Shown here: positions 13,074-13,556 of the stretch, piece after piece
Layout: every line of letters begins with the position of its first letter
How positions within the stretch are numbered: the stretch's first letter is position 1
Virus record (IMG/VR): IMGVR_UViG_2671181019_000012
Location: 1-20,910 of that record
Origin: a virus
Taxonomy: Duplodnaviria > Heunggongvirae > Uroviricota > Caudoviricetes
Length of the DNA stretch: 20,910 nucleotides
Reading direction: 5' to 3' (one strand)
Translations under genes and position numbers: made by a program
Notes under the pieces: model-generated
Told to the model about the DNA's origin: nothing
Databases searched by the model: none
The model's input: only the letters and a program-made list of their open reading frames with translations

Positions 13074-13427
13074 TTATTTATTCAAGATTCTATCCATAAT
13101 ATTTCTTAGTTCTTGTCTGGTTGATTCTATTTTAGCAAGCAACGTTTTTATCAATGAGGGTGAAAAATCAACTGTGCGTGGATCGTTAGCTAACCACAGT
13201 TTAAGTAACCCACCAAGTCGACCAAGATCAGCATTTACTCGGCTAAGCTCTACAACCTGTTCAATATCTACCATAGACTCAACCTGATAACCCATTGCTA
13301 CTTTACGAATGAAACTCGCTACACTTAAGCCAGATGCTTCTGCATTATCCTGGATTTGCGCTTTTTCATCTGGCAAACAATAAACTTTAATTGGTGTACT
13401 ATTTTTTCTAGTCTGAGAAACGGTCAT
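13074..13427 (-). CDS. traJ: TraJ-like oriT-binding relaxosome accessory protein (IncP type)
   Basis: IKVYCLPDE...LGRLGGLLKLWL.NDPRT...LLAKIE matches RP4 TraJ as I recall it; immediately downstream of oriT-like sequence. Start 13427 (GGAG RBS) or 13439. Confidence 0.85.
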   Translation of the reverse strand: MTVSQTRKNSTPIKVYCLPDEKAQIQDNAEASGLSVASFIRKVAMGYQVESMVDIEQVVELSRVNADLGRLGGLLKLWLANDPRTVDFSPSLIKTLLAKIESTRQELRNIMDRILNK

Positions 13428-13451
13428 ATCATTCTCCATACAGGCGGTAGC

Positions 13452-13556
13452 CGATCAGCCTCGCAGAGCAGGACTCCGTTGAGCAGCTCAGCTGCGAATA
13501 AGGGAAGGTAAAGTAGAAGCACCGTTTACGGTGGGCCTACTTTACATATCCTGCCC
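13452..13556 (+). other. IncP/RP4-like origin of transfer with inverted repeat and nic-site motif
   Basis: CAGCCTCGCAGAGCAGGA...GCGAATAAGGGA...; inverted repeat GTAAAGTAG (13508-13516) / CTACTTTAC (13537-13545) with nested CACCG/CGGTG; ATCCTGCCC at 13548-13556. Confidence 0.8.

Follow-up and report, generated by a model that had tools for sequence, protein, structure and literature searches.

We describe an IncP-type origin of transfer (oriT), the adjoining traJ gene, and the integrated element that carries them, in a window of 20,910 nt (positions 1 to 20,910 of the IMG/VR virus record IMGVR_UViG_2671181019_000012, to which all coordinates below refer). The window is a stretch of Escherichia coli chromosome, in which positions 1–7974 represent the terminal part of a lambdoid prophage, with a cI-like repressor gene at 932–1633 and an integrase gene at 6811–7974. 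It is followed by a 13.6-kb element, hereafter the island. The window lacks only the final ~700 bp of this element, where nothing but the 5' end of a cargo gene and the right attachment site (attR) is found. The features of the island that concern integration, transfer, and replication are arranged as follows.

7995–8034, no strand: attL, a 40-bp direct repeat, CGATAATAGGAGTCGAACCTACGACCTTCGCATTACGAAT, the reverse complement of the 3' part of tRNA-Thr(CGU)
8096–9199, + strand: tyrosine recombinase (integrase), 367 aa (Pfam Phage_integrase, E = 1.6e-26)
10616–12019, − strand: trbL (VirB6-type), 467 aa, an island-specific variant (Pfam TrbL, E = 2e-29)
12013–12186, − strand: trbK-like gene for a putative entry-exclusion lipoprotein, 57 aa, with the position and length of plasmid trbK
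12198–12992, − strand: trbJ (VirB5-type), 264 aa (NCBIfam TrbJ equivalog, 381.8 bits against a cut-off of 286)
12939–12951: KorB-operator-like site with one mismatch, TTTAGCTGCTAAA, inside the 5' end of trbJ, at the LAAKK codons
13074–13439, − strand: traJ, oriT-recognition ribbon-helix-helix protein, 121 aa (NCBIfam NF010451, Pfam NikA-like)
13443–13575, + strand: oriT core, with an inverted repeat at 13508–13545 and the nick region ATCCTG/CCC at 13548–13556 (the slash marks the predicted nick)
13710–14003, − strand: AlpA/Xis-like DNA-binding protein, 97 aa, a putative excision factor or regulator
14026–14053, no strand: two adjacent perfect KorB operators, TTTAGCGGCTAAA and TTTAGCCGCTAAA (together TTTAGCSGCTAAA)
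14205–14425, no strand: region resembling an origin of vegetative replication (oriV), with GGTTA repeats at 14217–14245, three iterons, and two DnaA boxes
14304–14364: the three TrfA iterons, CGTACCTCAWATGTCAT, with 22-bp spacing
14388–14396 and 14414–14422: the DnaA boxes
14453–14464 and 14644–14655: perfect KorA operators, GTTTAGCTAAAC; a variant, GGTTAGCTAACC, at 14535–14546

The segment at 13452–13556, which an earlier note on this DNA had likened to the oriT of RP4, is indeed an IncP-type oriT. The core region aligns without large gaps with the traJ-proximal oriT of five IncP-1-type plasmids (pDS1, KX580713, pJJ1886_4, pEC187_3, and R751), R751 (IncP-1 beta) rather than RP4 being the archetype in this comparison, and the identity amounts to 89.7% for KX580713 (136 nt), 82.2% for pDS1, 77.8% for pEC187_3, and 70.9% for R751 (127 nt). 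Given that a blastn search with traJ plus oriT against pDS1 yielded E = 2e-73, the similarity of both to their plasmid counterparts is genuine and not a product of chance. Directly 5' of the nick region, a ~19-bp imperfect inverted repeat, with the arms GTAAAGTAG (13508–13516) and CTACTTTAC (13537–13545) and the inner arms CACCG and CGGTG around TTTA, aligns with those of R751, pDS1, KX580713, and pEC187_3; folded as single-stranded DNA, the oriT hairpin has a free energy of −13.6 kcal/mol (z = −3.75), and none of 200 shuffled sequences was as stable. The nick motif ATCCTGCCC occupies positions 13548–13556, and the core TCCTGCCC is invariant in 11 of 11 aligned sequences. We take the nick to fall between G13553 and C13554 of the + strand, a position transferred from the literature on the RP4 and R751 oriT, which places it 8 nt from the end of the inverted repeat at 13545. 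The block encompassing the inverted repeat and the nick matches KX580713 at 46 of 49 positions and R751 at 33 of 51. Similarity to all plasmids compared ends at ~13576, ~20 nt beyond the nick, so that the island oriT has no TraK-binding region.

The neighboring gene encodes TraJ, as the earlier note had recognized: the protein scores 161.8 bits against the NCBIfam equivalog NF010451 'TraJ' (cut-off 134) and 81.2 bits against the Pfam NikA-like family PF21983 (cut-off 27), and is 70% identical to TraJ of pDS1 and pEC187_3, 63% to that of KX580713, and 45% to that of R751. The start of traJ in RefSeq is placed four codons downstream of the open reading frame (ORF) start. In the IncP-1-type plasmids compared, traJ is followed by the relaxase gene traI, whereas in the island it is followed, after exactly 81 bp, by trbJ, both points being as described in that note. 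The lack of a relaxase noticed in the window extends to the complete 13.6-kb element, including the part beyond the window. When all ORFs of five IncP-1-type plasmids were compared by tblastn with the island in its full length, only the TrbL, TrbJ, TraJ, HigA, and VbhA homologs matched, with no match to TraI, TraK, TraG, TrfA, KorA, KorB, or incC; the trbK-like product, too diverged to reach the tblastn cut-off, was recognized by pairwise comparison. Because the island has its own oriT and TraJ but no relaxase, its transfer is possible only in trans.

The mating apparatus, which the earlier note supposed to be borrowed, is in fact partly supplied by the island itself: it brings its own trbJ and trbL and a trbK-like gene that the note had missed, and only the remaining type IV secretion system genes are absent. 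Between residues 35 and 237, TrbJ differs from its homolog in KX580713 by two amino-acid changes in 203 core codons (~99% identity), with 31 nucleotide differences in 30 codons, 28 synonymous, and a ratio of nonsynonymous to synonymous substitution rates (dN/dS) of 0.026. The last ~25 residues are island-specific, and identity over the whole protein is 92% to KX580713 and 57% to R751. The TrbK-like protein possesses a signal peptide, a Cys-Asp lipobox, and a C-terminal PSPKREW motif identical to that of R751 TrbK, and is 26–42% identical to plasmid TrbK proteins, including 26–30% to those of KX580713-like plasmids (hereafter helper-type plasmids). It reached no NCBIfam TrbK model, and its assignment is based on position, size, lipobox, and C-terminal motif rather than on a match to a hidden Markov model. 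TrbL is 58–60% identical overall to the helper-type TrbL, with a shorter C terminus; its transmembrane N-terminal two-thirds are ~45–65% identical to the KX580713 protein and its Gly-rich segment 80–86%, and the island-specific versions of these proteins are absent from PLSDB plasmids, none of which encodes a TrbL at least 80% identical to that of the island. The specificity regions of TrbJ, TrbK, and TrbL thus differ from those of all plasmids compared, and this pattern of an island-specific TrbJ tail, TrbK, and N-terminal part of TrbL suggests that entry exclusion might be altered.

Along with the oriT core, a TraJ ortholog, and the trbJ-trbK-trbL order, the island has in common with IncP-1 and IncP-1-like plasmids (RP4, R751, KX580713, pEC187_3, pJJ1886_4, and pDS1) the KorA and KorB operator sequences and TrfA-type iterons with 22-bp spacing; unlike these plasmids, it is chromosomal, encodes an integrase, and lacks traI after traJ as well as traK, trfA, korA, korB, and incC. 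The KorB operator pair lies 23–50 bp upstream of the Xis-like gene, and the search, for which we assumed the operator consensus of RK2, returned three matches with at most one mismatch against 0.01 expected. The same 13-mer is present in 12 copies in the helper-type plasmid KX580713, one of them inside its trbJ. KorB sites are kept in the related element of Enterobacter quasiroggenkampii (locus L009), in locus L010, and in the loci of PIME1, a type of related island discussed below; the equivalent of the trbJ-internal site is perfect in KX580713, R751, and PIME1 loci of the guaA type. The KorA 12-mer is found also in the korA and trfA promoter regions of KX580713 and R751, with two copies in KX580713. 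A G tract between the KorA operators (14505–14516) differs in length among strains (G12 here, G7 in STO_Bone1B, and G9 in ES6), as does another just upstream of the antitoxin gene higA (14692–14698; G7 here and G8 in ES6); these differences could reflect phase variation in the expression of higA or the oriV region, or homopolymer errors of assembly.

The oriV-like region is colinear with, and ~77–81% identical to, the oriV of enterobacterial IncP-1-like plasmids, and is A+T-rich (GC content 0.31–0.34). Its iteron GTACCTCAWATGTC, of the GTACC type, is identical to that of pEC187_3, and the same type occurs in pKPC2_sg2, whereas KX580713 has a different one (GCCCCTCA...); of the three iterons in the E. 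quasiroggenkampii element, two belong to the GCCCC type, like those of KX580713. The number of iterons differs as well, with three in the island against 7+2 in KX580713. The cis sites of the island copies, namely, the iteron type and the oriT inverted repeat, thus track different subclades of helper plasmids, a pattern that would be difficult to account for if the sites were not in use. In the literature searched, we found no description of TrfA iterons or KorA/KorB operators on an island. The 97-aa protein encoded next to the KorB operators matches PHROG 66 'excisionase and transcriptional regulator' (E = 7e-6), with a further match to PHROG 6355 and none in Pfam or NCBIfam, and is 80–92% conserved in the Enterobacter relatives. 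It has the motif W-x3-V-x2-WI in common with the AlpA protein of PIME1, with a BLASTP E value of only 0.047, and the two are not detectably homologous.

The limits of the island are apparent from strain STO_Bone1B, which matches window positions 7971–20910 at 99.8%: in its near-identical element, a perfect second copy of the 40-mer lies 13,618 bp away, and beyond it comes the integrase of a CP4-6-like island. In E. quasiroggenkampii, the repeat flanks a 10.9-kb element of the same kind, which carries at the same end an integrase 92% identical to that of the island; one of the two repeat copies there belongs to an intact tRNA-Thr(cgt) gene. ARAGORN, run on the window and the E. coli loci, detected no tRNA. 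One and the same attachment (att) sequence derived from tRNA-Thr is common to three mobile elements arranged in tandem, namely, a lambdoid prophage, the integrative and mobilizable element (IME), and, in STO_Bone1B, a CP4-6-like island with its own integrase, as seen at window positions 6811–8095 and at 28642–30166 of locus L007; in ES6 and STO_Bone1B, the island adjoins yagP/paoD directly, with no prophage between. Beside the island in ES6, RefSeq annotates a 112-nt 'tRNA-Ser' (positions 19990–20101 of locus L001), where ARAGORN finds no tRNA; this gene looks miscalled, because the interval covers the att repeat derived from tRNA-Thr(CGU). The prophage region at 1–6800 contains immunity and accessory genes, among them a DNA N6-adenine methyltransferase-like ORF (5120–5677) and an excisionase-like ORF (6554–6934), which are unrelated to oriT and traJ.

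The same module resides in other chromosomes, where the earlier note had advised looking for it. Within E. coli, the trbJ-traJ-oriT module (at least 80% coverage) is present in 226 of 5426 complete genomes, and the whole 7.5-kb core of this variant in 51 complete genomes. A species-level genome scan, which used TraJ alone and reaches close relatives only, retrieved nine further loci, from Enterobacter (two), Pseudescherichia, Erwinia, Dickeya, Shigella, Citrobacter, Phytobacter, and an Enterobacterales metagenome-assembled genome, and in all nine (8 other genera), traJ is followed after a gap of ~84 bp by trbJ-trbK-trbL. None of the nine loci encodes TraI, TraK, TraG, or TrfA within 10 kb. In the Phytobacter copy, trbK/trbL are disrupted. 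Between diverged island copies, dN/dS is 0.12–0.13 for traJ, 0.08–0.11 for trbJ, 0.19–0.46 for trbK, and 0.13–0.15 for trbL. The architecture of the transfer module is conserved and under purifying selection.

The remaining genes of the island comprise antitoxin homologs, conserved hypothetical genes, and cargo.

9209–10312, + strand: accessory region, consisting of the next two genes
9209–10099, + strand: 296-aa membrane protein (PHROG 26661, function unknown)
10086–10211, + strand: VbhA-family antitoxin gene, 41 aa as a result of a frameshift
10334–10546, − strand: conserved 70-aa hypothetical protein, downstream of trbL (PHROG 26407, function unknown)
14701–14958, + strand: orphan higA antitoxin gene (NCBIfam TIGR02607, 65.9 bits against a cut-off of 47.7)
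15614–17651, − strand: variable cargo, with a 420-aa Zn-ribbon-like protein (15614–16876) and an MltR-family regulator (17124–17651)
18166–20910 and beyond, − strand: candidate three-gene anti-phage system, Hp3 (18166–18843), Hp2 (18830–19909), and Hp1 (19909 to beyond the window)

HigA is 51–52% identical to the HigA proteins of the higBA pairs of KX580713 and pDS1, and the island has no higB; on the basis of this homology, the orphan HigA could serve as an anti-addiction device against the helper. Relatives of the PIME1 type also have a higA gene, adjoining trbL. STO_Bone1B and ES6 encode an intact VbhA of 75 aa, and the antitoxin is 40% identical to VbhA of plasmid pJJ1886_4; no gene for a cognate Fic/VbhT toxin is present in the island. 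The 70-aa gene is 61–99% identical in the Enterobacter relatives, from which the 420-aa gene, whose product has an N-terminal double CxxC motif, and the MltR-family gene are absent. These two proteins score very highly against PHROG families of unknown function, and neither is matched in PADLOC. The products of the Hp3, Hp2, and Hp1 genes match PADLOC PDLC03006, PDLC03005, and PDLC03004 (E = 3e-80 to 5e-176); in other strains, the same place is taken by DUF4365 and pPIWI-associated nuclease genes, insertion sequence elements, or a Tn10-like tet(B). The 296-aa, 70-aa, and 420-aa proteins had no match in Pfam, NCBIfam, or PADLOC and, having no informative family match, none of them can be argued to be a hidden relaxase or replicase. 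No homolog of RepA_PF16 or TrfA was detected in the whole element, and no replication-protein family was found among the island ORFs scanned against Pfam, PADLOC, NCBIfam, and PHROG.

Islands of this general kind have been described, so that the idea of a relaxase-less island mobilized by IncP plasmids, as put forward in the earlier note, is not new. GIsul2 and its relatives are relaxase-less IMEs with TrbJ, TrbK, and TrbL, for which IncP helpers and a reshaping of the pore similar to that by SGI1 have been proposed (PMC5704250, Guedon et al. 2017). Like the island, GIsul2 encodes IncP-related TrbJ, TrbK, and TrbL and lacks a relaxase, a coupling protein, and other pore subunits, a likeness of described gene content rather than of aligned sequence; it differs in its repA/repC genes, its integration at guaA, and its resistance cargo. 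SGI1 is likewise relaxase-less and swaps the helper pore subunits TraN, TraH, and TraG to evade exclusion (PMC5704250). It is also reported to replicate only with the helper present and to hijack the parABS system of its IncA/IncC helper, which it expels by parS mimicry (PMC7433901, PMC7826253, PMC10954446). SGI1 differs, however, in that its genes are unrelated, its pore is of the MPF-F/IncC rather than the MPF-T/IncP type (MPF, mating pair formation), it encodes its own replicase, and it is switched on by the helper activator AcaCD, whereas the helper-type sites of the island are repressor operators.

The closest relatives are the PIMEs (Pseudomonadota Integrative Mobilizable Elements; PIME1 is subfamily 1), a wider family named in a January 2026 preprint (Perta et al., bioRxiv 10.64898/2026.01.12.698999). 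The oriT regions of PIME1 are IncP-like and adjoin traJ, and the IncP-1 plasmids pB10 and pKJK5 trigger PIME1 excision; amplification of pB10 was lower once a PIME1 element had excised and replicated, and the preprint makes no mention of KorA, KorB, TrfA, or exclusion (bioRxiv 10.64898/2026.01.12.698999). PIME1EcPF16 is 85% identical at the DNA level to window positions 10570–13650 (3.1 kb, trbL-trbK-trbJ-traJ-oriT), its TrbJ tail is nearly identical to that of the island, its TrbK and TrbL are 70% and 86% identical, respectively, and its inverted repeat-nick block is identical to that of pEC187_3. PIME1 elements have the traJ-trbJ junction, the island-type TrbJ tail and TrbK, the higA gene, an IncP-like oriT, and defense cargo in common with the island, and those of the EcPF16/EcRHB23-C07 type also the lack of a relaxase. 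The differences concern integration and replication. PIME1 resides at guaA and the island at tRNA-Thr, with an unrelated integrase of a different lineage, and the island has neither luxR nor a RepA or RepA/RepC replicase, whereas in the guaA-type relatives the interval from alpA to oriT encodes either RepA or an RSF1010-like RepA together with a further replication protein. In the island, the replicase module is replaced by the three-iteron oriV-like region, the doubled KorB operator, and two to three KorA operators. PIME1EcPF16, by comparison, has a single KorB operator, a single KorA operator, and a single iteron-like site close to its oriT. Among the features by which PIMEs are operationally recognized, the integrase, trbJ, trbL, and an IncP-like oriT are present in the island, the 97-aa Xis-like protein is a candidate for the alpA regulator, and a repA of its own is absent. 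Because the PIME screen required repA, this element would not have been retrieved, which suggests that it is absent from the 1136 PIMEs of the preprint. In the literature searched, a variant of the PIME/GIsul2 kind that lacks a replicase, is integrated at tRNA-Thr, and has helper-type sites for replication and control appears to be undescribed.

Taken together, these comparisons point, with a probability of roughly 0.7, to the feature being the transfer module of a 13.6-kb IME of the GIsul2/PIME kind, integrated at an att site derived from tRNA-Thr(CGU) and served by a low-GC enterobacterial IncP-1-like helper. Mobilization in trans by an IncP-1-type plasmid, as proposed in the earlier note, fits a conserved, relaxase-less element with its own oriT and TraJ whose relatives respond to IncP-1 plasmids; it is the RP4/R751 type of helper that is doubtful. 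Because oriT, the TrbJ core, and the iterons match enterobacterial IncP-1-like plasmids, the helper is likely to belong to the clade of KX580713 and pEC187_3 rather than to be RP4. The island's dependence apparently goes beyond transfer, such that replication and control proteins would also be borrowed from the helper. In the proposed course of events, the presence of the helper in the cell would lead to excision of the island by the integrase and the Xis-like protein; island TraJ, which is assumed to be compatible with plasmid TraI, would bind the right arm of the inverted repeat and recruit TraI, which would nick ATCCTG/C, and the strand would be exported by plasmid TraG and the Trb pore. 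By analogy with RP4, the right side of the nick (the oriV-like region, higA, and cargo) would enter the recipient first and traJ-trbJKL last. Island TrbJ and TrbL would join the plasmid pore, the TrbJ core being kept near-identical for docking, and the TrbJ tail and the N-terminal domain of TrbL would change the exclusion specificity, a change proposed for GIsul2 and demonstrated for SGI1 with IncC plasmids, with island TrbK blocking entry from donors whose pore contains island-type parts. Through the iterons, DnaA boxes, and KorB sites, the excised circle may be replicated by helper TrfA and perhaps partitioned or regulated by KorA, KorB, and IncC, so that helper-driven replication would stand in for the RepA module of the described PIMEs; alternatively, these sites may interfere with helper copy control. 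More speculatively, and with the odds somewhat against the full set of claims, the island could be a complete satellite that uses only cis sites (oriT, TrfA iterons with DnaA boxes, KorB sites serving as centromere or operator, and KorA operators) to borrow the helper's relaxase, initiator, partition system, and regulators, in which case the TrbJ tail and/or the N-terminal domain of TrbL would be the donor-side determinant of exclusion, and the helper of relaxase-less PIMEs would be named.

Several observations weigh against this interpretation. The plasmid TraJ proteins compared are only 63–71% identical to that of the island (45% for R751), and traJ is interrupted by a stop codon in PIME1EcPF16 and in the copy from Shigella. 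The minimal oriV of RK2 comprises five iterons, of which the three in the island fall short, and the role of these three could lie in interfering with copy number instead of in forming an origin. Since both KorA and KorB act as repressors, their operators in front of the Xis-like gene would be expected to let the helper silence this gene rather than induce it, and for IncP plasmids no donor-side target of TrbK is known. Among 334 matching records in 333 E. coli genomes, the island and a helper-type plasmid are co-resident in at most one; this deficit is not significant, because a rough expectation under independence, assuming two matched places per plasmid, is ~3 genomes. Finally, the relaxase-less PIME1EcRHB23-C07 was excised but not mobilized by pB10 and pKJK5, and its cloned oriT plus traJ was mobilized poorly or not at all; the authors suggest that this element needs a different helper (bioRxiv 10.64898/2026.01.12.698999).

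These same experiments bear on the alternatives. It is unlikely that a classical IncP-1 plasmid such as RP4 or R751 mobilizes the island, with the latter giving only TraJ and borrowing the relaxase together with the entire mating apparatus. R751 does have the oriT core (71% identity) and the nick motif in common with the island, TraJ belongs to the same equivalog family, and pB10 and pKJK5 induce PIME1 excision, but their failure to mobilize PIME1EcRHB23-C07 or its cloned oriT plus traJ argues against such a helper. So do the closer matches to KX580713 than to R751 (46/49 against 33/51 positions in the inverted repeat-nick block, 63% against 45% in TraJ, and 92% against 57% in TrbJ) and the island's own TrbJ, TrbK, and TrbL. 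Had the island instead been a decaying remnant of an integrated IncP-1-like plasmid or integrative and conjugative element, with oriT, traJ, and trbJKL as functionless leftovers, one could account for the fragmentary IncP-1 backbone, the frameshifted VbhA, the traJ pseudogenes of PIME1EcPF16 and Shigella, the disrupted TrbK/TrbL of Phytobacter, and the failed mobilization of the relaxase-less relative. Recurrence and purifying selection are a strong argument against decay, and make this explanation very improbable: this junction, with its gene set, is met again in 8 other genera and 226 E. coli genomes, dN/dS is low in all four genes, the att repeats and operators are perfect, the oriT and iteron types track plasmid subclades, and relatives excise with IncP-1 plasmids.

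An equally small chance can be given to the island being an anti-plasmid device, in which TrbK would exclude IncP-like plasmids, the cis sites would titrate TrfA, KorA, and KorB, and the antitoxins would neutralize addiction toxins. Iterons without a Rep gene are classic incompatibility determinants, the orphan HigA and VbhA are homologous to helper antitoxins, and the near-absence of co-residence with helper-type plasmids would be expected; the reduced amplification of pB10 with a replicating PIME1 (bioRxiv 10.64898/2026.01.12.698999) and the expulsion of the SGI1 helper reported in PMC10954446 point in the same direction. Exclusion of the helper is nevertheless doubtful with a TrbK only 26–30% identical to that of the helper, the co-occurrence deficit falls short of significance, and the conserved oriT, TraJ, integrase, and att repeats are sensible only for mobility. 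Such activity is, moreover, compatible with a mobilizable island served by an IncP-1-like helper and does not exclude it.

Islands carrying this module are present in ~4% of complete E. coli genomes and in several enterobacterial genera and bring anti-phage defense cargo, and their predicted helpers are IncP-1-like plasmids that spread mcr-1 and carbapenemase genes (KX580713 being an mcr-1 IncP-1-like plasmid); because the helpers spread resistance, their identity bears on the joint travel of defense genes and resistance plasmids. The sequence matches provide testable candidate helpers for relaxase-less PIMEs, of the KX580713 type with respect to oriT and the TrbJ core and of the pEC187_3 type with respect to the iterons. 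With the apparent mimicry of iterons and KorA/KorB operators, helper hijacking would no longer be confined to transfer but would take in replication and control as well. That the TrbJ tail, TrbK, and TrbL have diverged jointly provides a starting point for finding the target of IncP entry exclusion, and, if the proposed role of these regions is correct, the mosaic would locate the donor-side determinant of such exclusion.

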